Source of the DNA: Geosiphon pyriformis uo1
Lineage: Eukaryota > Fungi > Glomeromycota
Direction: 5' to 3'
Assembly (NCBI GenBank): GCA_016748015.1
Contig: JAAOMT010000420.1
Span: 226,602 to 290,601 of the forward strand
DNA: 64,000 nucleotides
Under the pieces are notes generated by a model. It made no database searches and was not told the origin of the DNA. It saw only the letters and a program-made list of their open reading frames with translations. The position numbers were made by a program, and so were the translations under genes. Position 1 is the stretch's first letter; each line of letters opens with the position of its first letter. Below, one piece after another: positions 1,261 through 54,373 of the stretch.

Positions 1261-1382
1261 TATAAGAGATTTAAAAATAAAAGAAAATTATTTTTGGTGT
1301 ATGAGTTTTTATATTATTTTTGTTTTGTTTTTGTGAGATTGTTTCTAAATTATAAGGAGATAACTATAATAATAAATTTAAA

Positions 1383-2766: not shown

Positions 2767-2812
2767 TGTTTGTTGTTTTGTTATTAATTCAAATGGGTGT
2801 TGGTTTTGTATT

Positions 2813-5800: not shown

Positions 5801-8398
5801 TTTGTATTTGAATGGAATGTAAGGATGTTGTTTTCATGGTTCTGGTTTTAAATAGAGGACATTCCATCTGGATGTCACTGGTTCTTTTGTTTCAAGAGAA
5901 TCGTTTGTTGAAAAATACTGTTGTTCAGTTTCATCAGCCCAATTGGAGGTTGATCCAAGTGCCATAAATGTTTTAATGATGGGTTTTTCTTCTTCCAGTT
6001 CGAATTCAAAAGCTGGGGCTTTTTCAGAGCATTTGTTGAATGTACCACAAGTGGCAGGTATCTGGGCGTGTTGTTCTTGATAAGAGATTGTTAACTCTTG
6101 TGTCTCCCAATTCAAATTAGCATTGGCTTTTTGGAGCCAATTGTTTCCAATGAGAGCTTGGTATTGGAGAGCATCCATGACCAGAACTTTGACTGGAATG
6201 GTGATTCTGTTAATTGTGAATGGGAAGTTGTCAATTTCTCCTACTGGAGTCTTTTTCATGCCATCAGCAGTGACAATGATTGTCTAAGCTGGTCAGTCAA
6301 TGTTTCTTTTTAGCTGCTGCATCAATTGATATGTAATGATGCTTCTAGCAGATCCACTGTTTAGGATCAAGTGAATTGGCTTTTTTTCTGCTTCAGCTTC
6401 TGTGTATATTGCAGTGATGGCTTTTTGCTCGTTAGCTGCTGCATTGCTAAGCAAGAATGGTGATTTATTTGCTTCAAATTCAAAAGGGAATATATCTGAA
6501 AGATTGGTATTTTCAGCAATTCTGGCTGGTGGGATTGTGGTAGAAGTATAGGAAGGGTTTTGTTGTTGTGCTGCAGCTCTACCTTCTGAGAGTGCAGTAT
6601 GGCGAAAATCCTGTTCTTCTGGCATCATAAGATAACTAGGTTGAGTATAATAGTAGTTGGGTTTTGGTTGAGCTGAATTTTGGGGAACTAATTGGTTGTT
6701 CGAATTGATTCTATTGTTGTTTACTTGGTATTGGTTTTGTGGTGTGAACTGATTTTGTGGAATCAATCTTCAAGCAGGAACTTGATAATGTTGTATGAGT
6801 GGTTGTTGGTATTGCTGTTGGATTGGCTGTGGGGTGGGCTGATAATAGTTACTTTGGTATTGGGGTCTTGGTAGATAATAAGCTGGTGGTGGTGGTTGAT
6901 AATAAAATTGCTGTAATGGAGGGTAATGTTGATTACTCCTATTTTGTTGGTCTCATTGTAGCTTTCTGCAATTTTTTTTCCAGTGGCCAGGAATTCTACA
7001 GTAATGGCAATTTTGAGGCTGGTTATTAGAAAGTGGTGCAAAGTTATTTTAATTTTGTCTTTGGGGTGGTTGATATCTTTGGAGTTGTTGTTGTTGTTAT
7101 TGGTTGGTGAAGTAGTTTTCAACTTTCTTGGTTAATTGGTCAATTTTTTTTTCAGCTGCTGAGCTGGTTTCTCCAATAGCCAGGTTAACAAGTTTGGTAC
7201 AGTTGGCTTTTTCCATGGCCATTTCATAGTTTTTCGCCTGTTGAATAGCAGTGGCTAAATCTTCTGGTGCATGTGGGTGAACTTTTTTAATAAGTTTGTC
7301 TTTTAGTCCAGCAATGAATTGATCCAAGATTTGTGTATTGGAGTAGTATTTATTGGTTTTTAATTGCCGAATCCTTCTAAGCAGTTTGTTGAATTTCCCA
7401 AGATAGGTCATAACTGATTCACTTGGTTCTTGCTTGATATTTCGGAACCAATTTCAAATGGTAATGGAAGTGTTATTGTCAGTGAACTGTTCTAGAAAAG
7501 CAGTTTTGAATGCTTCTCAATATTCTGGTGGGGCTTCCAAGTTTTCAAACCATTCACCAGCTGTTCTTTATAAGAAGTATGAAATTGTTTTTAACATTCT
7601 AGCAGTGTTCCAATCATTTGCATCTCCTGCTTTTGAGACTTTGTCAAGCCATTCTTGAAGACTGGTTTCACTGTCTTCTCTTGTGAATTCAGGGATTTTT
7701 GCAATATATGTGGAGGTCATTTCTTCTTTATTTTCTGAGTCTTCTATTTCTTGTTCTGATTCAGTCTCTTCACTTCAATTTTCTGCTAAGTAGTCAATAA
7801 GGTTTGTGTTAATTAATATTGGTTTCTGTTGTTGAATAGGGCTTTTGGGTAACTGAAAATCTTCTATTCTTGAAAACTGAATAAGTGGTGAGCTTGGTGT
7901 TTACAGTTGAGCAAATGAAGCTGGAAATGGTGTGATTGAGAGTGGTAATTTAAAGCTGGCTCCTTGTTCTGGAGTTTGTAAATGTTTGGCAATAGTTTTA
8001 AGTGTATTGGGAATAGTTCTGAGTTTTTGTTTTCTTTTTCCTTTTCCTTCTTCTGTTTCCAATTCAAAACTAAGAGAAAATTTCTGTTCTACTGAATAAT
8101 TCTCTTTACAATACTGAATGATATTGAAGTTGAGTTCTTGGAAGTATGTTTCAAGTGTTTGACTGTTAAAATCCTGAGTGTTTAGACAAGAGTGATGTAC
8201 TAAGCTTTCATATAAGTTGTGTCTAACTTCTGAAATATTGTAGTCTCCAAAAAGATAATTGTTGATGTGATTTTCAATGTACTGGTAAAGTGTTTTCTTG
8301 AATGTTTCAATTCCATCTAGAATGTTAAATCTCTGTTTGCAGTGGGTGTAGATTGACTGATAATACTCTAGAGTTCTTGAATCTGTTTGAGTTGCCAC
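2813..8398 (-). pseudogene. Gag-PR-Cys-rich-dUTPase-RT-RNaseH polyprotein of E1
   Basis: Capsid, zinc knuckle, protease LILNSGS, dUTPase IIDAGYIG...RGTQGFGSTG, RT YLDD and RNase H fragments; many stops. Confidence 0.93.
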
Positions 8399-8444
8399 TT
8401 TTGAAGTTGTTGTCACTGTGTTATTTCCGTGGAAAAGTACCAAA

Positions 8445-11734: not shown

Positions 11735-11866
11735 ACGCTGATATTCGCGCTGATTTGTTGGACACTTATGCAGCTGTCTGAGAGGTGCATTCTGGTCTGT
11801 CTTGCTCTTTTTTGTGTGTATCACAGTTGTTGTTAACTTGCATTTCAGATGTAACTGTCAGTATGA

Positions 11867-12848: not shown

Positions 12849-12893
12849 TTTGGTGTTCTCCCACGGAAATAACACAGCAACAACAAATTCAAA

Positions 12894-15800
12894 GTGGTGA
12901 TTACACCAGACACAACAACTCTAGAGTATTACCAGTCAATTTACATTCACTACAAGCAAAGATTCAACATTCTAGACAGAATTGAAGTTGTCAAAAAATC
13001 AGTATACCAATACATTAAAAACCACATCAACAATTATCTTTTTGAAAACTACAACATTTCAGAAGTTAGAAACAACCTCTACAATAATTTAGTGTACTAT
13101 TCGCAATTGGGAACAGAAAACCTGAACAGTGAAACACTTGCTACCTACTTTCAAGAACTTAATTTTAACATTATTGAATATTGTGAAGAAAAATATCCAG
13201 TACACTCTAAATACTCTTTTGACTTTGAATCAAAGACAAAAACAAGCAACAAAGGCAAACAAAGATTGAAGCAATACTCAAGAACCACTCCAAACACTCC
13301 AACACTACAAAAGACAACTGCCAAACACTTGCAAACACCTGAACAAGGAACCAGTTTAAAACTTCCACTTACTATCACACCTTTTCTAGCTTTACTTGCA
13401 CAAGCACAAACATCTAATTCACCCTTAAATTGATTTACAAAACCAGAAGATTTTACATTACTTAGAAGTCCTATCAGACAGCAAGAATCTCTTCAAACTA
13501 GTTCCAATCTTCTTGACTTTCTAGCTGAAAATCGAAGTAAATACTTTGAGACAGCAGTGAATGAAAAAAATGACTCTAAAATATCTGAAGAAGAATCAAT
13601 AGACAGTGAAAATGAAGAAGATAAAATGACAACATATATCACAAAAATCCCTGAATTTAATGGAGAAAACATTGAGACCAGTCCCCAAGAATGGCTCAAC
13701 CAAGTTACTAAAGCTGGAGATACAAATGGATAGAATGCTGCCAGAATGTTAAGAACAATTCCCTACTTTCTCAAAAAAACAACAGGCAAATGGTTCAAAA
13801 ACTTGACCACCCTTTTTAATGACTGGACAGCTTTCAAAACTGCCTTCTTAGAACAATTCACTGATAACAATACTTCAATCACACTTTGAAATTGTTTTTG
13901 CAATATCAAACAAGAACCCTCCAAATCTGTTATGACTTATATTGGAAAATTCAACAAACTCCTCAGATGAATTTGCCAACTTGAAACTAATGATTATTAT
14001 TCTGATGCTCAAATCTTGGATTAATTTATCGCTGGTTTAAAGGATAAACTGATTAAAAAGGTTTGCCCACATGCTCTAGAAGATTTAAACTCTGCCATTC
14101 AGCATGCAAAAAGATATGAAATGGCCATAGAAGAAGCCAATTGTACAAAACTTGTGAACTTAGCCATTGAAGAAACCAGCTCAGCAGCTGAGGAGAAAAT
14201 TGACCAACTCACAAAAAAAGTCAAAAACTATTTCACCAACCAACAACAACAGCAATCCCAAAGATATCAATCATCCCAAAGACGAAATCAAAACAACTTC
14301 ACATCATCCTCTAATAACCAGCCTCAGAATTGCCATTACTTTAGAATTCCTGGCTACTAGAAAAGAGATTGCAGAAAGCTACAACGAGATCAACAAAACA
14401 GAAGTAATCAATGTTATCCTTCGTCACAACAATCTTATTACCAACCACCACCACCACCAGCTTACTATCCACCAAGACCCCAATATCAAAATAACTATTA
14501 TCAGCCTGCTCCACAGCCAATTCAACAGCAATACCAACAACCACCCACACAACATTATCAAATACCTGCTCAAAGATTGATTACACAAAACCAATTCACA
14601 CCACAAAACTAATACCAAGTAAACAACAATAGAATTAGTTCGAACAACCAATTGGTTCCCTGAAATTCTATTTAACCAAGACCCAACCACTATCACACTC
14701 AATCCAGTTATTTAACAATGCCAGAAGAACAGAATTTTCACCATACTGCACTCTTAGAAGGTAGAGCTGCAGCACAACAACAAAATTCTTCTCATAACCA
14801 CACTACTATTCCACCAGCCAGAATTGCTGAAAACACCAATCTCTCTAATATCTTTCTTTTCGAGTTCGAAACCAATGAATTACCATTTTTATTCAGCAAT
14901 GCAGCCACCAATGAACAAAAAACAATCACTGCTATGTACACTGAAGCAGAAGTTGAAGAAAAGGCAATTCGTTTGATCCTAGACAATAGATCCACCAGAA
15001 GCATCATTACCTATCAGTTGATGCAACAGTTAAAGAGAAATGTTGACCGACCAGCTCAGACAGTAATCATCACTGCTAATGGCATGAAAAAGACTTCAGT
15101 AGGAGAAATTGACAATTTTCCATTTACTCTTGATGGAATTACTATTCCAGTCAAAGTTCTTGTAATGAACGCTCTTCAGTATCAAGCCCTTGTCAGAAAT
15201 GACTGGCTTCAAAAAGCCAATGCAAAATTAGACTGGGAAACCCAATAACTACAAATCTCTTACCAAGGACAACATGCCCGAGTATCTGCCACTTGTGGTA
15301 CATTCAACAAATACTCCAAAAAAGCCCTGGCTTTTGAATTTGAGCCAGAAGAAGAAAAACCAATAATCAAAACATTCATGGCTCTTGAGTCAACGTCCAA
15401 TTGGGCCGATGAAACTGAACAAGAACATTTTATCCCACACTCTGAACCCAAAACCCCTGAATGAAATATCCCCTACTCAAAGACTGAGCCAAGAAAACAA
15501 CGCCCCTATATTCCCCTTAAATGTAAAGACTGTCACAAGAAACTATCGTCAATGGGAGCTTGTATTTTACCTGAGGAAAAATATGAAAGTCACACCTGCT
15601 ACTATTGCAAGGCCTGCCATCGAGAATAATGAGGCCACTTGATCAAAAGAAGTGGAAAATAGGATGGAACACTCTGTTTTACTTGTGGAAAACAGCTTCT
15701 TGATGAATGTAACTGGATTGATGTTGCATTTAGAGGAGGAGTCTGTGATCAAACTTGTCAATATGCTCTTTCTATTGCAGAAAAAGTAAAATGTGGAACA

Positions 15801-18514
15801 TCTTTCAATGCTGCATACAACAGCGCTCTCAGCAAACTCTATTACTACTCCCATGACGCCGAAATGATCTATGAACTTGCCATGGTTTTAATTAATGGAG
15901 AAACCAAAGAAAATGTCCTTCAAATGAAGGAAACTGAATACATTGAATATATCTTGGAATTAGCTGGATTCAATTATGAAGATGAAGTAGAAGTGTACCA
16001 CCAAATCGCAAGTCACACCTACCTGACCCAAGAAGCTCAAATTCAATAATTAGAACAAATAAACATTAAATTATGTGAGGAATGTATAATGCCGTGTGAC
16101 AAACAATGATGTTCTGAATGCTATGCTCTTAGCATTCCATTACCCAGCAAAAGTAACAAATACAAAATTGAGTTTGGAGAACCTGAAGCAACAGAAAAAA
16201 TTGAAGTAACACCTATTTATCTCATCAAAAATCAGTCTGCCTTACAACTCAAATACTTCAACAACAACGGACAAGGAATAAAACCTGAAAAAACACATGA
16301 AATTGATGCTGAATATGACCTAAGATATCCAGACAAAGATACTCTTGTTCTCAAACCCAAATCTCTCACAAAAATCAACCTCAAAATTCTCTCGAAATCC
16401 TGTCAGGAGCAATGGTTCAAATTGCCTCCCAGTTCTCTCTGGCAAGCAAAGGAATCAATATCAGAGGAGGAATAATTAATGCTGAATATACTGGTGACAT
16501 AACAGTAATACTCCAAAATGAAACCGATAAACCTTTCAAAATTGAACATTCTGAAAAAATTGCCCAAGCTATCTATTTACCCTTAATTAATATTTCGGGC
16601 TTACAGTTAGTCAATCAAAGAGAACAATTGGAAAAAAGCAAAAGAGGAACACAAGATTTTGGTTCAACTGGACAATTCACAGTTCCAGTAAACATAGCTC
16701 TTAATGAACAAAGTGAATCTTACCAGATTCTACAACTTCCACAACCAATTACTATTTCATCTTTTGGAGAACACCCCAAAATTTACACTTGTGAAAAGCT
16801 AACAACCACCCAACAAATTTTTAAGTCCAATGAATAAATCTGCTTGAAACATAATATCTCAATTCCAAATATCTACATCCCAAAAAGAACAAAGAAAGTC
16901 CGAGTTACTTTTTACAACTCCAATAATTACCCCATAGTTTTATTAAATAACTTAGAAATTGGAGTTATTCACAGTAATATCTTTCAACAAAAATTACCCC
17001 AAACAATTCCTGATTTCTCTGAAATTATTGGACATTCACTACCAAAAATCAATCCAAACCTCAGCTCTAAAAACTACCATGTTGTCATGGAAAAACTATC
17101 TCAAATCAACATGGGACAACTTGAACCATAACAACAGAGCCAGCTCAAAGAGCTAATTGCAGAATTTGCCGATATCTTTGCCAAAAACAACAATGACATA
17201 GGAAGAACCGATTTGGTTCAACACCAAATCTATATAGGAGATGCCAAACCAAGGCAACAGCAAGCCTACCAAGTTGCTTCAGAAAGTCACCAATTTATCC
17301 ACAAAGAAGTGCAACGGATGCTCAACAATGGGCTTATTCAACCATCAATAAGTCTATGGGCTTCACCTGTGGTCTTAGTTAAAAAGAAAAATGGAAAAAT
17401 ACAATTTTGTGTTGATTATTGACAACTCAACAGTGTTACCATTGGAGATGCCTACTCTTTTCCCCAAATTGATGACATGCTAGATGCTTTTGGGAAGTCC
17501 AAATACTTTTCGACATTAGATTTAGAGAGTAGATACTAGCAAGTTGCCATGAATTCCAAAGATCGCTCTAAAACAGCATTCACCACTCAAAGAGAAAATT
17601 ATGAATTCAATATAATGCCTTTCGGATTATGCAATGCACCAGCAACATTTCAAAGACTTATGAACATTGTTTACAAAGGCCTCCTTTGAAAGTTAGTAGT
17701 TGTTTATCTTGACAATACTGATGTTTATTTTCCATCATTCGAATTACACTTAAAACACCTGCGAGAAGTTTTTCAATAATTATGAAAAGCAGAACTGAAA
17801 CTCAACATTGAAAAATACTACTTTGGAAAAACAAGCTTGGTCTTTCTTGGTCATATCATTAGTAAAGATGGAATCAAACCAGACCCTGGAAAAATCAGCA
17901 CTGTCAAAAACTTCAAAACTTCTCAAAACACTACAGAACTAAGAGGATTCATAGAGTTAGCCTTCTACTATCAGAAGTTTATCAAAAAATTCTTAGAAAT
18001 CGCAAAACCTCTCAACCAGCTTACCACCAAAAATGTTAAATACAAATAGACTGCTGAACACCAAAATGCATTTGAAATCCTCAAAGAAAAACTAATGACA
18101 GCTCCAATTCTTGCCTACCCAGATTTCAGCAACCAATTTTGGTTAGCAACAAATGCCTCTTATACTGTCTTTGGTGCTATCCTATCACAGTTAGATGACA
18201 ATAGAAATAAGCGAGTAATTGTTTATGCTAGCAGAACATTGAAACCAGCTGAAAAAAACTACTCTGCAATAGAATTAGAAACTGCAGCAGTAATCTGGGC
18301 CCTACATCACTTCAACCTTTACCTCAGACCCAAAAAATTTAATATTATCACTGATAATATTGGACTCAAATGGCTTCAGAACAAAAACACTCAGCTGAAT
18401 ACAAAACAAACCTGATAGACAGGATTTTTAGCCAACTACTGATATATTGTACACCACAAACCAGGAAAACTCCATACCAATATTAATTGTCTCTCAAGAA
18501 TGAGGCAAGATTAG
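12894..18514 (+). pseudogene. Gag-PR-Cys-rich-dUTPase-RT-RNaseH polyprotein of E2
   Basis: ORF pieces 12894, 14121, 14718 and 15864 share one frame, so Gag runs into PR without a frameshift; copy-specific 1-bp deletion near 16390; ends SRMRQD*. Confidence 0.93.
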
Positions 18515-18560
18515 AATACAAAACCAACACCCATTTAAATTAATAACAAAACAACAAACA

Positions 18561-19942
18561 ATGAACCCCGAAAACTACAACAATCTTAAACAATATTTGG
18601 AGACATTAACAATCCCAACAGATTGGTCCTCAGATAAAAAACATCAGTTACAACAACAAGCCAAATAATACTTCTTACACAATAACATAATTTATTATCG
18701 AAACTTCAGAAACCCAAACAATCCACTCAAATTAATACAAGAACATGAAAAAAAAACCATTTTATATAACATGCACTCAGACTTTTCATCAGCACACCTA
18801 GGAAAAGACAGCACCACCCAGAGAACACTAGAATATTACTTTTGGCCTCAAATGAGAAAAGACATTCATGAATACATTAAGTCTTATGATAGTTGTTAAA
18901 GAAGAGGAGGAACTCGCCCTACAGAACTTTTAAACCCAATCAAAGTTGAACAGTCTTTTGACCAAGTTGGTATCGATTTAGTCGGACCACTACCTATCAC
19001 AAACCAAGGAAACCATTATATTGCAGTAGCTGTAGACTATCTCACCAAATGGCCTGAAACCAGAGCCATTTAACAAGCAGATGCGAAATCAGTAGCAAAC
19101 TTCATCTATGAAGACATTATTTGTAGACATGGATGCCCAATAAAACTTTTATTTAATCAAGGAACACATTTCGTGAACAATTTAATCCAGGAAATTTGTG
19201 GACGATTTAATGTCAAGAGACCATTATCTTTGCCCTATCATCCACAAACAAATAGACTTGTAAAATGTTTCAACAGAACATTGTGTGAATCATTAGCCAA
19301 AGTCTCAACTGATTTTGAGCAAGAATGAGATCTCTTTATTCCATCAGTGTTACTAGCATATAGAACACTAAAACAAGATACCACAAAACACACACTATTT
19401 GATTTAATCTATGAAAGAACAGCAACGTTACCAATTAGTTTCACAATGGAAACATATCCAGTACAACCAATTAATAAAGACAACTTTTAGAAAACACTAC
19501 AATAAAGAGCCTATACTCTGCTTAGCACGTTGGAAAGAAAACAATAAATAGCAGTCATATTAAACACTCCCAAGCTCAACAAAAAGAATGGCATGACAAC
19601 AAATTGCCTTCAGTTACCAATGAATTTAAAATCAGAAACAAAGTTCTCTTACACAGAACTAAAGCTGAAAAACAATGGAATGGAAAATTTGAAAATAAAT
19701 AGGATAGACCATTCTTTATCCATGAAGTCCTAGGCAACAGGTCATACAAGCTAAGACTTGATAACAAAATCCTAGCAAAAGTTGCACATAGAGATCGTTT
19801 GAAACACTATAATTCCAGACACAATCCTGAACTATTAATTTCACAAATTAGTACACATTTCTCTTTAATCAATCCTGAAGATATTTCCTGAAATCTAGAA
19901 CCAATAGTTGTCATTGAACAATCTCTCAACTTGAACACTTAA
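18561..19942 (+). pseudogene. Integrase ORF of E2
   Basis: ATG at 18561 (MNPENYNNLKQYLETL), HSD..AHLG, GIDLVGP and YHPQTN motifs. Confidence 0.92.
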
Positions 19943-20064
19943 TTTAAATTTATTATTATAGTTATCTCCTTATAATTTAGAAACAATCTCACAAAAACAA
20001 AGCAAAAATAACATAAAAACCTATACACCAAAAATAATTTTCTTTTATTTTCAAATCTCTTATA

Positions 20065-20786
20065 ATGACTATTTCTTAAAACATTCAACAATTATCCCAA
20101 AAACTAATGTTAGCTTTAAAAACAATACCCAAATTATCTATTACTGTTACTGGAAACCACATTAATTATACCCAAACAGAAGTAGTTACAAATTTAGCCC
20201 CAAATTTACGAAAATATCACCCATATAAAAAGAACACAAGAAGTTATTCTGGAATTTACTTGCCAGAACTTTTAAAGCTTGCTTTAAGAGAAAACTTAAT
20301 ACTCACTCCTATTAGTATTTCACTAAATGCTACTATTCAACAAAAAACTTCAACTGTGTCTTAATGAAGAAAACTATGACTATACTCCAATATATAGATA
20401 TTTCTACATTAAAAAAACACTTCACAAACAAAAACAGAAGCTTATAGCAGCAAACCTCACAAAAAAAACTATTTGGAAACAACTCCACAACGAATTCAAG
20501 ACAACAGCTGGACCCTACAAACAGTCGTTATAAACTAAGAGCTGCTCTTAGACTTTATGACCTATTCCACATCTGTAAAAACGTACTACAAAACCCAATT
20601 TTTCAACCTTTGAAGATTCAATACATTGGAAAGCTCACAGAACTGAAATTTCAACAATTTTCAGACCAAATTTCTTTAATAATTTTGGATTATTATCTGG
20701 AAATAACAGACAGTACTTGGATTTCAATGGAGCTTAGTCTTGAGGAGAAAGTTATGTTACCAGATGAAATTAGAGATATTGTTTAG
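20065..20786 (+). pseudogene. Accessory ORF3 of E2
   Basis: Homologous to E3 ORF3, frameshifted; ends inside the 3' LTR. Confidence 0.85.
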
Positions 20787-21736
20787 CATAAAATTACCCT
20801 TATAAATCTTATCATTAATTAGCATATATTATTATTTCAAATTATTACTTATTACATTAGCAAAATGTCCGAAATTATCATTTAATTAATAACCCAATTT
20901 GTACATAACACAAATATAACCTAAGTGCAATGATCAATCATGCAATACCCCGAAATATGTAACATTCAAAAGTTTACCGAAATTTGTAGAAATTTGCCGA
21001 AATAATTAATAGTTCACTGAAATATCTAATAGTTCACAAAAATAACTTGTAGTTTGCTGAAATGTATCTTTAGTTCAGCAAAATTGTAGAAAAGAGCAAA
21101 GTTCAAGTTCATAGAATAATGTTACAATAAGTTGTATAAAAGAAGAGCTTCTCTTTTCAAGAAAATGTATCTTATTTTAGATTTATCACTTAGAACTATT
21201 CCTACACACACAAAAAGAAATAAATACCAAATAATTTGAAAAACCAAATTCTTTAATTATTGCACTTGGAAAATTCCCAAAACCCAACTAACATTTTGAA
21301 ATTGATTAGTTACCAATTTCAGTAAACTGTTAGTGACTCCAGGCCTGGATAGAAAACATTTCCCTTGACAGAATTCTATTTCTTTTACATTTCTTTTATT
21401 TTCTTTCTTTTATTTTCTTATTCTAATCATTAAAGTAGCCTACAGACAAGATTCTTGTAGAAGAGTTGACTTTCACAGCAAAGTAACTACACATTTTTAG
21501 TAAGCTTCCAGATGAGCAATTCTTGGGAAAGAGTTGACGTTTACTACAACATAACTACACAAAGCAACTGGTATGAAACTGGCTATTTCACTTATAAGCC
21601 CAGCAGTTCAAATTATAGGAGATAATTTGAAGATAAATTCAGTTATCGGAGGTTTAAACACTTCCCATAGTTGTGAATTAACAGCATTACAATAAACATA
21701 CAAGAGCTAAGAAGAGACCAAAAACTTCTGGTAACA
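20755..21736 (+). repeat. 3' LTR of E2
   Basis: TGTTACCAGA...TCTGGTAACA. Confidence 0.96.
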
Positions 21737-23210
21737 ACGGCCCTGTGTAAAGGCTTTGTTTTTGGCGATTGGTATCACGAGTCTGTTTCTGTTTACAAAG
21801 ATTCTAAGGTGGCAGTGGTTAATGTTGTGAATTTTGTATGTGAGTTTTGTTTTGCATTTTGTGATAATATCTGGCTGGTCCGTGTAAAACACTGGGCTAT
21901 TATGAAGAAGAATAAGCTAATTCCACGTGATGGTTCCATTTCTGTCACTGTTTCTGGTTTTTCTACATGGCTTTCAGCTGGAGTGATTAGGTTGTTGGGT
22001 ATTGCTGATGCACTTGGCATCAGTTTTGGATATTGTAAGCATTATTTGTTTTATGCAGGTGTTGGTGACATAGCTTCTGTTTATATAAGTGCATAGTATT
22101 GTTCTGACTAGTCTGAGTGTTTGGTTATGTGTAGCAAAGACATGATTTGCACCTAATTTAGATCATTTGTATAATGTATAGCACTAGGTGGTGTTTGGAC
22201 TTCACTCATAAAACTTTAAAAAAAAATAAAAAAAAAATGTCTTACTTAAAAAATTATAGAACAATCTAGCTTTTAACTTAAAACTCTTCTTAATTAAGAG
22301 ATCTTATTAATGACAAACCTTAAAAGAAATAAAATTAAACTGTAAATAATAGTTAAAAATAGATTGCAAAATAGCTGAAACTAAATATAAAAACTATTTA
22401 TTCATGATAATTTTTTTTAAAATCATATTTGAAAAAAACTTGATGTCAAATCAAGTCTTGGCTAAACTAGACTTAGACATTTCATCAGTAAATAAAAAGA
22501 TTTTTAAATATATGTGCAGTATACCATTTTTGGCAATTAAAATAAGTAATTCACTAATGTTTAAAAAAACATTTTTAATTTTTTGGTTAATAAAAATAGC
22601 CACTGTTTTGTTATTGTTAATTAAAATATTATTAATCAAAAAAATTTACTGACAATATCTAATATATATTGTGTAAAAATCTAACTATTCTTAATTTAGA
22701 TAATATTATCAATAAAGACATCAGCTATAAAAAAAAAAGTCACTTTTTTTTTGGTTTTTACTTTTTCTGTTTTAGCCATAAATTTGGTATTAATTTGGTA
22801 TTTATATAAATGTTGTTGTCTTTTAATCTTATATAAAAAAAAGTCATAGAAGATTCTCCAAAGAAAAGAAGAGAATATCTTATAATAATCTAGTCTATTA
22901 TGTATTTAATATTTATTTATAAGACTAAAATCTATCATAATTCTATTTAATCTATTTTTATAAATACTGCTAAAAAAGCCAATAAATTTTTTACACATTG
23001 TTACCAGACAAATTTAGAGATATTATTTAGCATGAAATTATCTTATAATTTCTATCATTAATTAGCATATATTATCATTTCAAATGATCACTTATTACAT
23101 TAGCAAAAATGTCTGAAATTATCATTTAATTAATAACCCAAATTGTACACAACACAAATATAACCTAATTGCGATGATCAATCATGCAATACCCCGAACT
23201 ATGTAACATT

Positions 23211-23335
23211 CAAAAAGTTTGCCGAAATTTGTAGAAATTTGCCGAAATAATTGATAGTTCACTGAAATATCTAATAGTTCGCCGAAATAACTTATAGTTT
23301 GCCGAAATGTATCTTTAGTTTAGTGAAATTTTAGA
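23211..23335 (+). repeat. 20-bp-period array of palindromic TTCGCCGAAAT-type motifs in LTR U3 (~6 units; present in all family A LTRs)
   Basis: agttt gccgaaattt gtagaaattt gccgaaataa ttgatagttc actgaaatat ctaatagttc gccgaaataa cttatagttt gccgaaatgt. Confidence 0.85.
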
Positions 23336-23379
23336 AAATAGCAAAGTTCAAGTTCATAGAATAGTGTTATGACAAGTTG

Positions 23380-23386
23380 TATAAAA
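23380..23386 (+). promoter_or_regulatory. Putative LTR TATA box (TATAAAA); candidate poly(A) signal AATAAA at 23463-23468
   Basis: Conserved in most LTR copies (one transition in the E1 5' LTR), ~45 bp downstream of the U3 array. Confidence 0.55.
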
Positions 23387-23676
23387 GAAAAGCTTCTCTC
23401 TTTGAGAAAATGTATCTACTTTAGATTTATCTCTTAAAACCGTTCATATATACACAAAAAGAAATAAATATCAAATAATTCGAAAAACCAAATTCTTTAA
23501 TTATTGTACTTGGAAAATTCCCAAAACCCAACTAACATTTCGAAATTGATTAGCTACCAATTTCAGTAAACTGTTAGTGACTCCAGGCCTGGATAGAAAA
23601 TGTTCCCTTGATAAGATCCTATTTCTTTTACACTTCTGTTATTTTTCTTTCTTTTCTTATTACAATCATTAGGGTA

Positions 23677-23800
23677 GCCTACAGACGAGATTCCTGTAGA
23701 AGAGTTGACTTTCACAGCAAAGTAACTACACATTTTTAGTGAGCTTCCAGACGAGCAATTTCTGGAAAAGAGTTGACGTTTACTACAATGTAACTACATA
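23677..23800 (+). other. Tandemly duplicated two-hairpin RNA motif in LTR U5/leader
   Basis: Unit 1: CTACAG-acgagattc-CTGTAG aag AGTT-g-ACTTT-cacagc-AAAGT-AACT. Unit 2 consensus: TTCCAG-acgagcaattc-CTGG(G/A)A aag AGTT-g-ACGTT-tactac-AACGT-AACT. Compensatory stem changes between units. Confidence 0.7.
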
Positions 23801-23976
23801 AAGTAACTAGCAAGAAATTGGCCATTCTACTCATAAGCCCAGCAAATTCAAATTATAGGAGATAATTTGAAGATAAATTCAGTTACTGGAGGTTCAACCA
23901 CATCCAGAAAACGTGAATTCACAGCAAATAAGTATCAACAACATTACAGAAAAGAGACCAAAAACCTCCGGTAACA

Positions 23977-23994
23977 TTTGGTGCTCTCCCACGG
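23977..23994 (+). promoter_or_regulatory. Primer binding site (TT-TGGTGCTCTCCCACGG)
   Basis: TGG two nt after the LTR end, complementary to a tRNA ending ...GAGAGCACCA; tRNA identity not determined. Confidence 0.8.
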
Positions 23995-24021
23995 AAACAA
24001 CACAGCAAAAACAAATTCAAA

Positions 24022-27000
24022 GTGGCAACCACACCAGACGCAACAACTCTAGAGTATTACCAATCAATTTACACCCACTGCAAGCAAAGATTCAACATTC
24101 CAGACGGAATTGAAATTGTCAAGAAATCAGTATACCAATGCATTGAAAACCGCATCAACAATTATTTTTTTGGAAATTACAATATCTCAGAAGTTAGAAG
24201 CAACCTTTACAATAATTTAGCACACTATTCACAGTTGGGAACTGAAGACCTTAATAGTGAAACACTTGCCACTTACTTTCACGAAATTAATTATAACATT
24301 ATTAAATACTGTGAAGAAACATATCCAGTGCAGTCTCAATACACTATTGATTTTGAATCGGAAACAGAAACAAGCAACAAAGGCAAAAACAAATTAAAGC
24401 AATATTCAAGAACCACCCCAAATACTCCAACACTACCGAAAACAACTGCTAAACATTTACAAACACCTGAACAAGAAACCAGTTCAAAACTTCTACTTAC
24501 TATCACACCTTTTCCAGCCTCACTTGTATAAGCACAAACACCTAATTCACCCTTGAATCGATTTGCAAGACCAGAAGATTTTACATCACTCAGAAGTCTC
24601 ACCAGACAACAAGAACCCCCTCAAACTAGTTCTAATCTCCTTGATTTTCTAGCTGAAAATCAAAGTGAACACTCTGAGACAGCAGCAAACGAAGAAAACA
24701 ACTCTGAAATAACCGAAGAAGAATCAATAGACAGTGAAAACGAAGAAAACAAAATGACAACATACATCACAAAAATCCCTGAATTCAATGGAGAAGATAT
24801 TGAGACCAGTCCCCAAGAATGGCTTGACCAAGTTACTAAAGCTGGAGATGTAAATGGATGGAATGCTGCCAGAATGTTAAGAACAATTCTCTACTTTCTC
24901 AAAGGCATAGCAGAAGAATGGTTTGAAAACCTTGCCGCCCCATTCAATGATTGGAATGCTTTTAAAGCAGCCTTCCTTGAACAGTTCACCGACAATAATA
25001 CCTTTATTGCTCTTCACAATTGTTTTCGAAATATCAAACAAGAACCCTCCAAATCCATTATGACTTATATTGGAAAATTCAACAAACTTCTCAGACGGAT
25101 TTGCCAACTCGAGACAAATGATTATTATTCTGATGCTTAAATCTTGGATCAATTTATTGCTGGTCTGAAAGATAAACTAATTAAAAAGGTTCGCCCACAC
25201 ACGCCAGAAGATTTAAACTCTGCCATCCAGTATGCGAAAAGATACGAAATGGCCATGGAAGAGGCCAATTGTACAAAACTTGTAAATTTGGCAATTGGAG
25301 AAACCAGCTCAGCAGCTGAGGAAAAAATTGACCAACTCACAAAGAAGGTCGAAAACTATTTTACCAACCAACAACAACAACAACAATCCCAAAGATATCA
25401 ACCACTCCAAAAACGAAATCAAAATAATTTTGCACCACTTTCAAATAACCAGCCCCAGAATTACCATTACTGTGAAATCTCTGGCCACTGGAAAAGAGAT
25501 TGCAGAAAGCTACAGCGAGACCAACAAAACAGGGATAATCAACGTTACTCTCCACTACAGCAATCTTATTATCAACCATTACCACCAGCTTACTATCCAC
25601 CAAGACCCCAATACCAAAATAACTATTATCAGCCCGCCCCACAACCAATCCAACAGCAATACCAACAACCACCCACACAACATTATCAAGTACCTGCTCG
25701 AAGACTGATTACACAAAATCAATTCACACCACAAAACCGATACCAAGTAAACAACAATAGAATCAGTTCAAACAACCAATTAGTTCCCCAAAATACCACT
25801 CAACCAAGATCCAACCCTTATCACACTCAACCCAGTTATTTAACAATGCCAGAAGAACAGAATTTTCACCATACTGCACCCTTAGAAGGTAGAGCTGCAG
25901 CCCAACAACAATGAAACCCTTCTCATAACCACACCATTATTCCACCAGCCCAAATTGTTGAAAATGCCAATCTCTCTGATATCTTTCTTTTTGAATTTGA
26001 AGCAAATGAATCACCATTCTTACTTAGCAATACAGTGCTAATGAGCAAAAAGCCATCACTGCAATGTATGCAGAAGCTGAAGTAGAAGGAAAGCCAATTT
26101 GTTTGATCCTAAACAGTGGATCCGCCGGAAGCATTATTACCTACCAGTTAATGTAACAGTTGAAAAGAAATATCAACCGACCAGCTCAAACAGTAATTAT
26201 CACTGCCGATGGTATGAAAAAGACTCCAGTAGGAGAAATTGACAATTTTCCATTCACTCTTGATGGAATCACTATTCCAGTCAAAGTTCTTGTAATGGAT
26301 GCACTCCAGTACCAAGCCCTCATCAGAAATGATTGGCTTCAAAAAGCCAATGCTAATCTGAACTGGGAGACACAAGAGTTAACAATCTCTTACCAAGGAC
26401 AACACGCCTGGGTACTTGCCATTTGTGGTACATTCAACAAACGCTCTGAAAAAGCCCTGGCTTTTGAATTTGAACCAGAAGAAAAAAAACCAATAATTGA
26501 AACATTCATGGCTCTTGGATCAACGTTCAATTGGGCCGATGAAACAAAACAAGAACATTTTACACCACACACTAAACCCGAAACCTCTGGATGGAATATA
26601 TCTTACTCAAAACCTGAACCAAGAAAACAACGCCCCTATATTCCCCTTAAATGTAAGGACTGCCACAAGAAACTATCATCAATAGGAGCCTGCATTTCAC
26701 CTGAAGAAGAATATGAGAATCATACTTGTTATTACTGCAAGGCTTGTCACAGAGAGCAATGGGGCCATCTAATAAAAAGGAGCGGAAAATGGGACAACAC
26801 CTCTTGTTTGACTTGTGGAGATATGCTACCAGAAGAATGCAATTAGATTGATGTAGCAATGAGAGGAGGTGTCTGTGATCAAACCTGCCAATATGCTTTA
26901 TCAATTTCAGAAAAAGTAAAAAGAGGAACACCCTTTAATGCAGCATACAACAGTGCTCTCAACAAACTTTATCACTACTTTCATGATGCCGAGATGATTT

Positions 27001-29645
27001 TCGACTTAGCAATGGCTTTAATTAATGGAGCTACCAAAGAAGATGTTCGTCAAATAAAGGAAGTAGAATACATTAAATACACTATGGAATTAGCTGGATT
27101 TGATTACAAAGATGAAGTAGAAGTCTATCACCAAATTGCAAGTCACACCTACCCAACTCAAGAAGCTCAAATTCAACGATTAGAGCAAATGAACATTAGG
27201 CTATGTGAAGAATGCATTATGCCTTGTAATGAACAATGGTGTCCCAAATGCTATGCTCTTAGTATTCCCTTGCCCAGCGAAAATGATGAGAATGAAATTG
27301 AATTTGGAGAACCTGAAGAAATGGAAGAAATTGAAACAACACCCATCTACCTTATCAAAAATCAGCCTGCCTTACAACTTAAATACTTCAACAACAACAA
27401 ACAAGGAATAAAATCTGAAAAAGCACATGAAATTGATGTTGGATATGACTTAAGATATCCAGGCAAGAATACTCTTGTTCTCAAACCCAAATCTCTCACA
27501 AAAATCAACCTCAAAATTGCACTTGAAATCCCGCCAGAAGCAATGGTTCAAATCACCTCTCGGTCCTCTCTGGCAAGCAAAAGAATCAATGTCAGAGGAG
27601 GAATAATCGATGCTGGATATACTGGAGACATAACAGTGATGCTTCAAAATGAGACTGACAAACCATTCAAGATCGAACATGCTGAAAAAATTGCCCAAGC
27701 TATTTACCTACCCTTAATCAACATTTCGGGTTTGCAACTAGTCAATCAAAGAGAACATTTAGGAAAAAGTGATAGAGGAACTCAAGGTTTTGGTTCAACT
27801 GAATGATTCACAGTTCCAGTTAATATAGCTCTTAACACACAGAACAAATCCTACCAGATTCTCAGACTTCCACAACCGATTACCATCTCACTTTTTGGAG
27901 AACATCCAGAAATTTACACTTGTACAAAGCCAACAACCACACAACAAATTTTTGAGTCCAATGAACAAGTCTGCTTGGAACATAATATTTTGATCCCAAA
28001 CATTTATATTCCAGAAGGAACAAAGAAAGTCCGAGTTACTTTTTACAACCCCAATAATTACCCCATAATTTTATTAAATAATTTAGAAATTGGAGTTATT
28101 CACAGTAATATATTTCAACAAAAATTACCCCAAACAGTCCCCGATTTCCCTGAAATTATTGGACATTCACTACTGAAAATCAACCCAAACTCTAGCTCTG
28201 AAAACTACCATGTTGTTATGGAAAAACTATCTCAAATCAACATGGGACAACTTGAACTACAACAATAGACGCAGCTCAAAGAACTAATTGCAGAATTTGC
28301 TGATATCTTCGCCGAAAACAACAATGACTTAGGAAGAACTGATTTGGTTCAACACCAAATCTATACAGGAGATGCCAAACCCAGGTAACAACAAGCCTAC
28401 CAAGTTGCTCCAGAAAGTCACCAATTTATCCGAGAAGAAGTACAACGGATGCTTAACAATGGGCTTATTCAACCATCAATAAGCCCATGGGCCTCACCTG
28501 TGGTTCTAGTTAAAAAGAAAAATGGAAAGATACGATTTTGTGTTGATTACCGACAACTTAACAGTATCACCATTGGGGATGCCTACCCTCTTCCCCGAAT
28601 TGATAACATGTTGGATGCCCTTGGAAAGTCCAAATACTTTTCAACATTAGATTTAGAAAGTAGATACTGGCAAGTTGCTATGGATCCCAAAGACCGCTCC
28701 AAAACAGCATTCATCACTCAAGAAAGAAATTACGAGTTCAATGTAATGCCTTTTGGATTATGCAATGCACCAGCAACATTCCAAAGACTCATGGATGTTG
28801 TTTACAAAGGCCTCCTTTGGAAATCAGTAGTAGTTTATCTTGATGACACTGATGTTTATTCATCATCTTTTGAGCTACATTTAATTCACCTGCGAGAAGT
28901 TTTTCAATGATTACGGAAAGCAGGATTGAAATTGAACATTGAAAAATGCTACTTCGGAAAGACAAGTTTAGCTTTTCTTGGTCACATTGTTAGCAAAGAT
29001 GGAATTAAACCAGACCCCGGAAAAATCAGTACTGTCAAAAACTTCAAGACTCCATGAAATACCACAGAATTAAGAGGATTTATTGGATTAGCATTCTATT
29101 ACCGAAAATTCATCAAAGGATTCTCAGAAATTGCAAAACCTCTCAACCAGCTCACTATGAAAAATGTCGAATACAAATAGACAAAAGAACACCAAAATGC
29201 CTTCGAGATACTCAAGGAAAAACTCACAACAGTCCCAATCCTCGCCTACTCAGACTTCAGCAACCAATTCCGGTTAGCAACTGATGCTTCTTATACTGCC
29301 TTTGGTGTTATTCTATCACAGTTAGATAACAATGGAAATGAGCAAGTAATTGCTTATGCTAGTAGAACATTAAAACCAGCCGAAAAGAACTATTCTGCAA
29401 CAGAATTAGAAACTGCAGCAGTAATCTGGGCCCTACATCACTTCAACCTTTACCTCAGACCCAAAGAATTCGATATTATCACTGATAATATTGGACTTAA
29501 ATGGCTTCAAAACAAAAACATCCAGCTGAACGCAAAACAAACCCGATGGACAAGATTTTTAGCTAATTATCAATACATCGTACACCACAAACTAGGAAAA
29601 CTCCACACCAACGTTGATTGTCTCTCAAGGATGAGGCAAGATTAG
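24022..29645 (+). pseudogene. Gag-PR-Cys-rich-dUTPase-RT-RNaseH polyprotein of E3
   Basis: N-extension 24022-24753; capsid from MTTYITKIPEF; knuckle (C)HYCEISGHWKRDC; PR ILNSGSAG ~26100; Cys-rich ~26650-27270; dUTPase ~27370-27803; RT PWASPVVLV, MPFGLCNAPATFQ, YLDD; RNase H TDAS, YSATELE; few stops and frameshifts. Confidence 0.95.
27370..27803 (+). other. dUTPase domain within E3 polyprotein (also E2 ~16245-16675, E1 ~4655-5085)
   Basis: All five trimeric dUTPase motifs: D(A/V)GYDL, RSSLA, GIIDAGYTG, KIAQAI, RGTQGFGST(G). Confidence 0.95.
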
Positions 29646-29693
29646 AAACAAAACCAACACTCATTTGAATTAACAGCATCAAAACAACAAACA

Positions 29694-31079
29694 ATGAACC
29701 CTGAAAACTACAACAATCTCAAACAATATTTGGAGACATTAACAATCCCAACAGATTGGTTTTTAGACAAAAAACATTGATTACAATAACAAGCCAAACA
29801 ATATTTTCTACACAACAACATTATCTATCATCGAAATTTCAAAAACCCAACCAAATCACTCAGATTAATACAAGAACAGAAAAAAGAGACCATTTTATAC
29901 AACATGCACTCGGATCCTTTATCAGCACACTTCGGAAAAGATAGCACCACCCAAAGAACACTAGAATATTACTTTTGGCCTTGAATGAAAAAAAACATTC
30001 ATGAATATGTCGAATCTTGTGATAGTTGTCAAAGAAGAGGAAGAACTTGCCCTACAGAATCTTTAAATCCACTCAAAGTTGGACAGCCTTTTGACAGAGT
30101 TGGTATCGATTTAGTTGGACCACTATCTATCACCACTCAAGGAAACCATTATATTGCAGTAGCTGTAGACTATCTTACTAAATGGCCTGAAGCCAGAGCC
30201 ATTCAACGAGCAGATGCAAAATCAGTAGCAAATTTTATCTACGAAGACATCATTTGTAGACATGGATGTCCAATTGAACTTTTATCCGATCAGAGAACAC
30301 ACTTTGTGAACAACCTGATACAAGAAATTTGTGAACGATTCAATGTCAAAAAACCTCTGTCTTTGCCCTACCATCCACAAACAAACGGACTTGTGGAATG
30401 TTTTAACAGAACATTGTGTGAGTCATTAGCCAAAGTCTCAACTGATTTTGAGCAAGAATGGGATCTCTTTATTCTATCAGTGTTACTAGCATATAGGACA
30501 TTAAAACAAGATACCATAAAAAACACACCATTTGATTTAACTTATGGAAGGACGGCAACGTTACCAATTAGTTTTACAGTGGAAACATACCCAGTACAAC
30601 TGATCAATGAAAACAATTTCTAAGAAACACTTCAGTGAAGAGCCTACACTCTGCTTAGTACATTGGAAGGAAAACGACAAATAACAGCCACCCATATTGA
30701 ACACTCCCAAGCTCAACAAAAAGAACAGCATGATGACAAATTGCCTTCAGTCACCAATAAATTCAAAATTGGAAACAAAGTTCTCTTACACAGAACTAAA
30801 GCTGAAAAACAATGGAGTGGAAAATTTGAAAATAAATGAGATAAACCATTCTTTATCCATGAAGTCCTAGACAATGGATCATACAAGCTAAGACTTGATG
30901 ACAAAATCCTAGCAAAAGTTGCACATGGAGATCATTTGAAACACTATCATTCCAGAAACAATCCTGAACCATTAATTCCACAAATTGGTATACATTCTCC
31001 TTTGGTCAGTCCCGAAGATATTCCCTGAAACTTAGAACCAATAGTTGTTATTGAACAACCTTCCAACCTGAACACTTAA
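29694..31079 (+). pseudogene. Integrase ORF of E3 (separate from pol)
   Basis: HSDPLSAH...CDSCQ zinc finger, GIDLVGP, SDQ(G)THF, YHPQTNGLVE, GPF-like C-terminal module; no chromodomain seen. Confidence 0.94.
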
Positions 31080-31190
31080 TTTAATTTTACTAGTCATTCT
31101 CTTATAATTTAGAAACAATCTCACAAAAACAAAAACAACATAAAAACCCATACACCAAAAATAATTTTTATTTTTTTTCAATTGCTTATA

Positions 31191-31910
31191 ATGACTATTC
31201 CTCAAAACATTCAACAATTATCCCAAAAACTAATGTTAGCTTTAAAAACAATACCCAAATTATCTATTACTGTTACTGGAAACCACATTAATTATATCCA
31301 AACAGAAGTAGTTACAAATTTAGCCCCAAACTCACGAAAATAACACTCATATAAAAAGAACACAAGAAGTTATACTGGAATTCACCTGCCAGAACTTTTA
31401 AAGCTTGCTTTAAGAGAAAACCTAATGCTCACTCCAATTAGTATTCCACCAAATGCTACAATTCAACAAAAACTTCAACTGTGTCTTAATGAGAAAAACA
31501 CTGAATATCCTCCAATCTATAGATATTTTCACATTGGAAAAACACTCTACAAACAGAAACTGGAACTTACAACAGCAAACCTCACAAAAGAAGCTATTCA
31601 GAAACAACTCCACAATGAATTCAAGACAACAGCTGGATCAACAAACAGTCGCTACAGGCTTAGAGCCGCCCTTAAACTTTATGACCTATTCCACACCTGT
31701 GAAAACGTACTACAAAACCCAATTTTTCAACCTTTGAAGATTCAATACATTGGAAAGCTCACAGAACTGAAATTTCAACAATTTTCAGACCAAATTTCTT
31801 CAATAATTTTGGATTATTATCTGGAAATAACAGACAGTACTTGGACTTTGACGGAGCTCAGTCTTGAGGAGGAGGTTATGTTACCAGACGAATTTAGAGA
31901 TATTATTTAG
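31191..31910 (+). pseudogene. Accessory ORF3 of E3, 239 aa, unknown function
   Basis: ATG at 31191, one premature TAA (TAT in E1 and E2), frame runs across the PPT and ends 32 nt into the 3' LTR. Confidence 0.88.
31866..31875 (+). promoter_or_regulatory. Polypurine tract of E3
   Basis: GAGGAGGAGG, 3 nt before the 3' LTR. Confidence 0.8.
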
Positions 31911-32856
31911 CATGAAATTATCTTATAATTCCTATCATTAATTAGCATATATTATCATTTCAAATGATCACTTATTACATTAGCAAAAATGTCCGAAATT
32001 ATCATTTAATTAATAACCCAAATTGTACACAACACAAATGTAATCTAATTGTGATGATCAATCATGCAATACCCCAAACTATGTAACATTCAAAAAGTTT
32101 GCCAAAATTTGTAGAAATTTGCCAAAATAATTGATAGTTCACCAAAATATCTAATAGTTCGCTGAAATAACTTATAGTTTGCTGAAATGTATCTTTAGTT
32201 CAGCGAAATTTTAGAAAATAGCAAAGTTCAAGTTTATAGAATAGTGTTACGACAAGTTGTATAAAAGAAAAGCTTTTCTCTTCAAGAAAATGTATTTACT
32301 TTAGATTTATTTCTTAAAACCATTTATATACACACAAAAAGAAATAAATATCAAATAATTCGAAAAACCAAATTCTTTAATTATTGTACTTGGAAAATCC
32401 CCAAAACCCAATTAACATTTCGAAATTGATTAGCTACCAATTTCAGTAAACTGTTAGTGACTCCAAGCCTGGATAGAAAACGTTCCCTTGATAAGATCCT
32501 ATTTCTTTTACACTTCTGTTATTTTTCTTTCTTTTCTTATTACAATCATTAGGGTAGCCTACAGACGAGATTCCTGTAGAAGAGTTGACTTTCACAGCAA
32601 AATAACTACACATTTATAGTAAGCTTCCAGACAAGCAATTCCTGGGAAAGAGTTGACGTTTACTACAACATAACTACATAAAGTAACTGGCAAGGAATTG
32701 GCCATTCCACTCATAAGCCCAGCAAATTCAAATTATAGGAGATAATTTGAAGATAAATTCAGTTACTGGAGGTTCAACCACATCCAGAAAACGTGAATTC
32801 ACAGCAAATAAGTATCAACAACATTACAGAAAAGAAACCAAAAACCTCTGGTAACA
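31879..32856 (+). repeat. 3' LTR of E3
   Basis: TGTTACCAGA...TCTGGTAACA followed by TSD ACAT. Confidence 0.97.
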
Positions 32857-35518: not shown

Positions 35519-36615
35519 GGTCAATGATCAGGTCAATAATTAGGTCAATGATCAGGTCAATGGTCAGGTCATTGATCAGATCAATGATCAGGTTAACGGT
35601 GTTACCAGACGAAATTAGAGATATCATTTAGCATAAAACTATCTTATAATTCCTATCATTAATTAGCATATATTATCGTTTCAAATTATCACTTATTATA
35701 TTAGCAAAGAATGTTCGAAATTATCATTTAATTAATAACTCAAATTGTACACAACACAAATGTAACCTAATTGCAATGATCAATTATGCAATACCCCGAA
35801 CTATGTAACATTCAAAAGTTTGCCGAAATTTATAGAAATTTGCCAAAATAATTGATAGTTCACCGAAATATCTAATAGTTCACAGAAATAACTTGTAGTT
35901 TGCTGAAATGTATCTTTAGTTCAGCGAAATTGTAGAAAATAGCAAAGTTCAAGTTCATAGAATAGTGTTATGACAAGTTGTATAAAAGAAGAGCTTCTCT
36001 CTTCGAGAAAATGTATCTTACTTTAGATTTATCTCTTAAAACCGTTCCTATACACACAAAAAGAAATAAATATCAAATAATTCAAAAAACCAAATTCTTT
36101 AATTATTGTACTTGGAAAAACCCCCAAAAACCCAACTAACATTTCGAAATTGATTAGCTACCAATTTCAGTAAACTGTTAGTGACTCCAGGTCTGGATAG
36201 AAAAACGTTCTCTTGATAAAAATCTTATTTCTTTTATATTTCTTTTATTTTCTTTTCTTTTCTTATTACAATCATTAGGGTAGCCTACAGACGAGATTTT
36301 TGTAGAAGAGTTGACTTTCACAGCAAAGTAACTACACATTTTTAGTGAGCTTCCAAACGAGCAATTCCTGGAAAAGAGTTAATATTTACTACAACGTAAC
36401 TACATAAAGCAACTGGCACAGAATTGGCCATTCTACTCATAAGCCCAGCAAGTTCAAATTATAGGAGATAATTTGAAGTTAAAAATTCAGTTACTGGAGG
36501 TTCAACCACATCCAGAAAACGTGAATTCACAGCAAATAAATATCAACAACATTACAGAAAAGAAACCAAAAACTTCTGGTAACAACGGTCAGGTTATTGA
36601 TCAGATTAATGATCA
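35519..36615. repeat. 12-bp tandem array (GGTCAATGATCA) split by the solo LTR
   Basis: About 7 units at 35519-35599, continuing at 36585-36615. Confidence 0.85.
35600..36584 (+). mobile_element. Solo LTR, family A
   Basis: 985 bp, TGTTACCAGA...TCTGGTAACA, perfect TSD ACGG, no PBS or PPT. Confidence 0.97.
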
Positions 36616-53983: not shown

Positions 53984-54373
53984 ACTAGAATTTAATTGAA
54001 TGCTAGTTCAAATGAAAAAATATTCGGTTAGGATCAAGTTACGCTGTCAGCCTCCTTTCTGATTAAGGTAGTAACAGTATGCTTTGAAATAATCAATTCT
54101 CAAAACCAGAATTTTTTCTGACTAGGGATAATAATTACAAAGTATAAAAACAAAGAAAAATAGTTTAGATACACCCAATTGAATGTATTATTCAAAAAAA
54201 AAAGACTGGCAAATGGTAAAACTTGGGGCTACCGGAATCCAAGGTAAATATCGCGTAACTTTCATACTGCATGCAGGTCATATGTCGTAAGACTGTATTA
54301 TGTGGCTCGTTACAGTTGCATCGCACCCATAGAAAATGACGGAAATTTTTTATGTGAAAAAAAACCAAGTAGG

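Follow-up and report, generated by a model that had tools for sequence, protein, structure and literature searches.

A candidate GUG start codon for an N-terminally extended Gag in Ty3/gypsy elements of Geosiphon pyriformis

In a family of Ty3/gypsy elements of the fungus Geosiphon pyriformis, an open frame of more than 200 codons precedes the ATG at which the capsid domain of Gag begins. Does this frame encode part of Gag, and if so, where do ribosomes enter it? The window analysed here, a 64-kb stretch of DNA, contains three decayed elements of one such family, E1 to E3 (Table 1). A sequence-only reading of the window had proposed that two Gag isoforms are made, a long one from a GUG and a short one from the capsid AUG.

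The elements have paired LTRs with TG..CA ends, a target duplication, a PBS and a PPT. Gag is followed by PR-RT-RNase H-integrase, and Pfam matches to Retrotrans_gag, dUTPase, RT, RNase H and integrase lie in the order of Ty3/gypsy elements. The dUTPase precedes the RT (27420-27800, + strand), an observation in its own right for a fungal Ty3/gypsy element. Between protease and dUTPase lies a Cys-rich insert of about 250-300 residues with several CxxC pairs (26640-27400, + strand), for which Pfam gives a sub-threshold match only. An extra frame of about 240 codons follows the integrase and runs through the PPT into the 3' LTR (31200-31910 in E3, + strand); it is present at matching places in E1 and E2 and thus in all three elements, and the part of it that was scanned has no Pfam family. 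The copies (window positions 1-36600) have decayed mainly by C>T/G>A changes, which account for 95 and 68 of the roughly 245 variable positions, and CpG is almost wholly lost in E1 and E2. Elsewhere in the window, an F-box-like frame of 361 codons (52922-54007, - strand) is probably a host gene; a 409-codon frame on the opposite strand (54248-55477, +) has no Pfam family.

Table 1. Positions of the elements and of the features discussed, in window coordinates
Feature	Position	Strand	Remarks
E1	1-9421	-	LTR element; subfamily B extension
E2	11866-21736	+	LTR element; subfamily A extension
E3	22999-32856	+	LTR element
Solo LTR	35600-36584		
E1 extension	7718..8398	-	GTG 8398 to capsid ATG 7720; subfamily B; 226 codons
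E2 extension	12894..13628	+	GTG 12894 to capsid ATG 13626; subfamily A; 244 codons
E3 5' LTR	22999..23976	+	978 bp; TGTTACC...GGTAACA; 5-bp target duplication
TATAAAA, probable TATA box	23380..23386	+	in 7/7 LTRs; function inferred
Last LTR-common ATG	23410..23412	+	7/7 LTRs; 30 nt past TATA
ATG-depleted zone	23413..24753	+	1,340 nt: 3' part of LTR, PBS and extension
E3 PBS	23979..23995	+	starts with TGG, 2 nt past LTR end (23976)
AAA-GTG-G, predicted non-AUG start of long Gag isoform	24019..24025	+	
E3 extension	24022..24753	+	GTG 24022 to capsid ATG 24754; 244 codons
N-terminal domain	24022..24333	+	about 104 aa; aromatic, net acidic; four predicted helices
Basic patch (KGK..K), then Thr/Ser-Pro sites	24376..24453	+	common to subfamily C and family D
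Linker, S/T/P-rich then acidic	24454..24753	+	E3-private stop at 24529-24531
Capsid-domain ATG, predicted start of short, main isoform	24754..24756	+	
Capsid-first Gag	24754..25911	+	Retrotrans_gag; Arc-like capsid; CCHC knuckle region
E3 decayed pol	25915..30620	+	protease, Cys-rich insert, dUTPase, RT, RNase H, integrase
E3 3' LTR	31879..32856	+	

Coding capacity and candidate start codon of the extension

The extension opens with AAA-GTG-G in all three copies (24022 and 12894 on the + strand, 8398 on the - strand) and stays in frame with the capsid ATG over 244, 244 and 226 codons in E3, E2 and E1, broken only by 1, 1 and 2 copy-specific stops at different codons. The stop at 24529 in E3 is private, and 98% of the contig depth in run X1 carries a C there; the GTG site is not among the best 40 supported variants listed for the contigs of that run. 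Upstream of the GTG the frame is lost: an additional base separates PBS and GTG in E1, and all three frames of the PBS stretch are used by gene models (in 20, 9 and 3 of them). The GTG sites, the codon counts, the copy-specific stops and the loss of frame further upstream are as the sequence-only reading had them. Comparison of E1 with E2/E3 yielded dN/dS values of 0.14 for codons 1-110, 0.20 for the linker and 0.12-0.13 for the capsid. Synonymous sites are close to saturation in this comparison (pS 0.64), and transitions pull the estimates of the simple method down, as pN/pS values of 0.34-1.15 in LTR controls show. The uncorrected pN/pS of the N-terminal domain was 0.28-0.29 in frame versus 0.8-1.5 in both shifted frames. 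Between E3 and E2 alone the selection signal is weak (0.32). The frame is preserved across linker indels. Judged by these comparisons, the extension is under purifying selection at the protein level, i.e. it is coding.

Of 198 related proteins that were fetched, 144 span the whole domain (127 from subfamily A, 4 from B and 13 from C); all counts for the family refer to gene models that were predicted by machine, introns included, from decayed copies, and that favour open frames. Among models that are contiguous with the upstream DNA or start at the site, 106 have Val at position 1, 9 have Met and 1 has Ile, while the other 28 of the 144 are spliced or start later. Over 135 models, position 1 shows Met 15 times and Ile once, and six internal Val columns show Ile 30 times and Met once. 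Since G>A decay converts GTG to a Met codon and other Val codons to Ile codons, the codon at position 1 is GTG. The rate of Met or Ile at this position (13/121, 10.7%) is ordinary for G>A decay, which ranges from 0.8 to 22.8% at 23 other G-first sites, and the ATG copies are therefore decay products. A majority of copies with ATG at this site had been named as the finding that would speak against the proposal; instead, Val prevails and Met occurs at the background rate of decay. Among in-frame near-cognate codons with a purine at -3 and G at +4, this GTG is the only one at which all three copies have the same codon. A stable hairpin about 14 nt 3' of the GUG, which would be an enhancer and is not required, was not found (fold z -0.14, -0.44 and 0.10).

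A search from a chimeric model led to a sister family, D, with 54 matches including the query. By hhalign (84%, E 7.7e-6), the N-terminal domain of this family is a homologue, with 20% identity over 91 columns. In family D, 35 of 53 models could be anchored at the start site and 18 could not; position 1 of the anchored models is Val in 29, Met in 5, Leu in 1 and Ile in none, and the combination of Val and Met without Ile indicates that here, too, the codon is GTG. In 32 of the 35 models the residue before position 1 is one of four (Lys, Thr, Asn, Ile) whose codons all begin with A, so that position -3 is A; the G at +4 is partly circular, because the anchor pattern demanded Ala or Thr at +2. 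In the 29 models that extend as far as the capsid, the extension measures 209-325 residues; the upstream frames vary. A GTG with A at -3 is thus kept among the copies and down to 20% identity in the sister family. One internal column of family D also decays to Met, so this test marks GTG codons rather than starts; that the GTG serves as a start is suggested by its position and context. The chimeric models P0074 and P0186 contain another Geosiphon Gag type, MAYWDIAKLEKF...

The residues after the capsid ATG carry the Gag and Ty3-capsid Pfam families and align weakly to Arc capsids (E 0.06-0.15). The capsid Met is kept in 121 of 134 models of subfamilies A, B and C and in 29 of 39 models of family D, although its distance to the YIAKI motif shifts among subfamilies. 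In A, B and C it is preceded by Glu or Lys (160/161), which places a purine at -3. In family D it mostly follows Pro or Gln (27/32); the resulting C at -3 is a weaker context and a point against strong use of the capsid ATG there. Gag is in frame into the protease in E1 and E2, and one gene model reads through the dUTPase into the next region. Gag and pol thus probably form one frame, in which case both starts would also give Gag-Pol.

ATG depletion from the LTR to the capsid

The leader had also been described as almost free of ATGs. The extensions of E3, E2 and E1 contain 1, 3 and 2 ATGs, every one out of frame, against an expectation of 8.7-9.3 from base composition or 5.4-8.2 from dinucleotides. 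Four of these six lie at columns with ACG or ACA in another copy, so that the earlier reading of most as products of ACG>ATG decay is right; of the remaining two, one is ambiguous and one (in E3) is due to an A>G change.

The depletion starts about 610 nt further upstream than first noted, within the LTR, and covers about 1.3 kb in total. In a comparison of seven LTRs, one of them partial, the first 413 nt contain 9 ATG sites common to at least four LTRs, and the last 565 nt contain none; for the control trimer CAT, these counts are 8 and 6. Sporadic ATGs in the last 565 nt occur at ACG/ACA columns. Over the whole zone, the ATG counts of the copies are 3, 4 and 5 for 1,340, 1,345 and 1,286 nt, versus 24-28 expected from the downstream rate or 11.5-14.1 from dinucleotides; the three copies are related, and this depletion amounts to about one or two observations. 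In E3, 3 ATGs stand against 17 CATs. ATG is the trimer with the lowest observed/expected ratio in the zone in all three copies, and its density is back to normal directly 3' of the capsid ATG.

The same picture emerges at the protein level. Met accounts for 6 of 30,361 extension residues in 134 gene models versus 249 of 17,493 in the core, and for 23 of 7,557 extension residues in family D. In the window, the extension has 0 Met codons in 711 versus 50 in 3,100 (P=6e-5), and xAY|G codon pairs have T in 5 of 10 cases in the extension versus 95 of 105 downstream (P 0.003); due to the relatedness of the three copies, these P values do not count as independent. When synonymous codons of the extension were shuffled, no added ATG avoidance emerged (P 0.08, 1.0 and 0.76). 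Shuffling of codon order gave mixed results (P 0.005, 0.30 and 0.036), and the E1 gag control was low as well (P 0.02).

The last ATG common to the LTRs, at 23410, lies exactly 30 nt after the TATA motif and, instead of being a start codon, may mark the initiator. The ORF that it opens has 4-42 codons, in a frame that varies among copies. With this one TATA motif as a guide, transcription probably starts near 23410. Provided that it starts at or after approximately this position, the stretch from the cap to the main AUG would lack any conserved AUG.

Properties of the N-terminal domain

Structure prediction of the first 100 residues had been suggested. AlphaFold was run on a 59-sequence alignment. 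The best model (pLDDT 83, pTM 0.74; only 2 of the 5 models exceeded pLDDT 78) has four helices, at residues 6-22, 30-49, 54-68 and 78-99; an earlier run on 3 sequences gave a poor model, with a pLDDT of 49. Net acidic in charge, the domain has 7-9 K/R versus 13 D/E, and the basic patch comes after it. This patch has 5.6-7.2 K/R per 26-30 residues in A, C and D, and Ser/Thr-Pro sites are present in 96 of 98 matches. The extension had been called matrix-like, a description that is supported by its position and predicted helicity but not beyond these: a Gly2 myristoylation site was not found (residue 2 is Ala, Val or Thr), and the charge is acidic. Nor does the extension contain a hydrophobic signal or anchor (maximum 19-residue hydropathy 0.76-1.16). 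The parallel to the glyco-Gag of MLV, which had also been drawn, is for this reason limited to the translation mechanism, where it stands.

In fold searches, the four-helix model gave a best E of 1.1 against the PDB (Foldseek), a best E of 0.84 against viral structures and a best Z of 7.5 with VIA (a designed protein; rmsd 3.0, 98 aligned). Retroviral matrix proteins are absent from the matches listed, and as Z values below about 13 are common for bundles, no fold was assigned. Pfam has no family for the extension, a PDB sequence search with A4 returned nothing relevant, and the Atlas contained no usable match to the domain and, for the core, nothing but generic Gag clusters. Among 447 homologues of the extension, the best 120 are all gene models of Geosiphon pyriformis; gene model P0170 agrees by eye with the translation of E2. 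Of 10 matches looked up among the weakest of 70 representative ones, 9 are from Geosiphon. The tenth, a repetitive Halomonas protein (E 2.7e-4), was rejected as a homologue from outside Geosiphon. Viral and metagenome scans for the domain or the capsid yielded 0 loci, and 58 RT-related loci contained no convincing match to the domain (best E 0.044), the closest being too short to reach gag.

Two proposed Gag isoforms, alternatives and known systems

Non-AUG starts normally need A or G at -3 and G at +4, initiate at about 2-30%, and are usually part of leaky scanning, e.g. in MLV glyco-Gag and the coat extensions of furoviruses (PMC3542737); GUG ranks second to CUG among them (PMC5666671). With selection on the extension, the depletion of ATG and the conservation of the GTG all in its favour, we regard the proposed pair of isoforms, from GUG initiation followed by leaky scanning, as well supported by indirect evidence, with a probability of roughly 0.78. 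Ribosomes would start at the GUG, in its optimal context, a minority of times and produce long Gag; those that pass it would scan the ATG-depleted leader to the capsid AUG and produce the main, short Gag. Both forms would come from one RNA, in a ratio for which the 2-30% initiation at non-AUG starts serves as a guide.

An improbable alternative retains the GUG for the long form and assigns the capsid-first form to a separate, shorter RNA made from an internal promoter or by splicing. It has a precedent in Ty1, where p22 is translated from the Ty1i RNA (PMC5408680), and 730 nt is a long way to scan, but it leaves unexplained why ATGs, absent all along the stretch between LTR and capsid ATG, reappear directly 3' of it. 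We give slightly less credence to the GUG as the sole real start, an inefficient one that would limit Gag output and leave the capsid Met as a protease site or a structural residue. Ty3/gypsy Gags are indeed processed by the protease, and in family D the capsid Met has a weak -3 context. However, with no AUG upstream, ribosomes passing the GUG would meet the capsid AUG first, the depletion stops exactly there, and both the retention of this Met despite shifting spacing and the purine at -3 in A, B and C argue for its use.

The remaining alternatives concern how ribosomes reach the GUG, or whether it is a GUG in the mRNA at all. Very improbably, scanning is not involved, and ribosomes arrive by internal entry, by a shunt or by reinitiation after the ORF at 23410, possibly with pairing between PBS and GUG as a gate. 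The ATG at 23410 is kept in 7/7 LTRs and may lie inside the transcript, which counts against the two-isoform reading, and the minimum-energy folds of E3 and E2 allow a pairing of GUGG with CCAC of the PBS. Yet these folds are no better than those of shuffled sequences (z -0.05 and -1.26), the length of the short ORF varies, and an ATG depletion over 1.3 kb is the signature of linear scanning. Within the region of this pairing (23979-24040, + strand), the outer stem is not kept in E1. Least probable of all is an AG/TG splice acceptor that joins an LTR exon ending in A to the TG, creating an AUG and removing the PBS from the mRNA. A/GTAACT donors one mismatch off the consensus exist at 23722 (in 3/3 copies) and 23803, and some machine gene models use the acceptor. 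Still, AAG is a poor splice acceptor, a pyrimidine tract is lacking here, an intron would have no need to be free of ATGs, and the likely leader has no ATG common to the copies. Six family D models with Asn before position 1 (AAY-GTG), and hence no AG, also argue against an ATG made by splicing.

If the two isoforms are made, the long form could co-assemble as a minor subunit and show the four-helix domain and the basic, Thr-Pro-rich patch on the particle, where they would act as a module for targeting, with nuclear entry as the likeliest function. This role is tentative, and we propose it by analogy, because Tf1 and Ty3 Gag engage nuclear pore proteins: nuclear entry of Tf1 Gag requires Nup124, and Ty3 Gag docks on GLFG nucleoporins (PMC5909446). 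It is likewise conceivable, if short of probable, that an entire Geosiphon clade of autonomous LTR elements, with proteins as little as 20% identical, uses the GUG for dosage, so that a fixed minority of the capsid subunits carries the uncharacterised four-helix domain. If true, the result would be a two-subunit retrotransposon particle set by a start codon, with the targeting module on the minor subunit. With the GUG start as such, start-codon choice would join frameshift, readthrough and splicing as a means of controlling protein ratios in retrotransposons. LTR elements are reported to make up 41.2% of the G. pyriformis genome (PMC11952901), and the design would thus belong to a very successful lineage. 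For annotation, AUG-based models trim a conserved domain off Gag and invent introns to supply a Met.

Non-AUG starts of Gag are already known from MLV and the domesticated PEG10; here, they are proposed for families of fungal elements. Judged by titles and the beginnings of abstracts, searches of the open-access literature yielded no report of such a start, either in Geosiphon or in an autonomous LTR retrotransposon of fungi. As proposed for the Geosiphon elements, MLV combines a non-AUG start, which lies upstream and in frame, with an AUG-initiated Gag on one RNA (PMC3542737). It uses CUG, whereas the Geosiphon elements are fungal Ty3/gypsy elements with a GUG and an extension of 226-325 aa that contains a predicted folded domain, has no signal or membrane segment and precedes an AUG form predicted to start at the capsid, without a matrix. 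PEG10 shares the Ty3/gypsy gag and the kind of non-AUG start proposed here, upstream of an in-frame AUG, and use of both its CUG and its AUG was demonstrated by mutation (PMC2800197). It is, however, a domesticated host gene with only 34 extra residues, while the Geosiphon families multiply and would add a whole domain. In Ty1, another LTR retrotransposon, the shorter Gag p22/p18 also begins at an internal AUG, but p22 comes from a separate internal transcript and is a C-terminal fragment that restricts transposition (PMC5408680), whereas the Geosiphon AUG form would contain the whole capsid. In filamentous fungi, cpc-1 has non-AUG N-terminal extensions, with conserved near-cognate starts that have A at -3 and G at +4 and with a dN/dS below 1; it encodes a cellular transcription factor, has uORFs and uses CUG, AUU and ACG instead of GUG (PMC5487733). 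Furoviruses make a minor N-extended coat protein from a CUG, much as proposed here for Gag, and in rice tungro bacilliform virus an AUG-poor stretch of about 895 nt is scanned, comparable to the Geosiphon leader (PMC3542737); both are plant viruses whose proteins are unrelated to Geosiphon Gag. The feature itself is real, and the proposed GUG-initiated Gag, backed by deep sequence conservation, would be a variant of a known mechanism.
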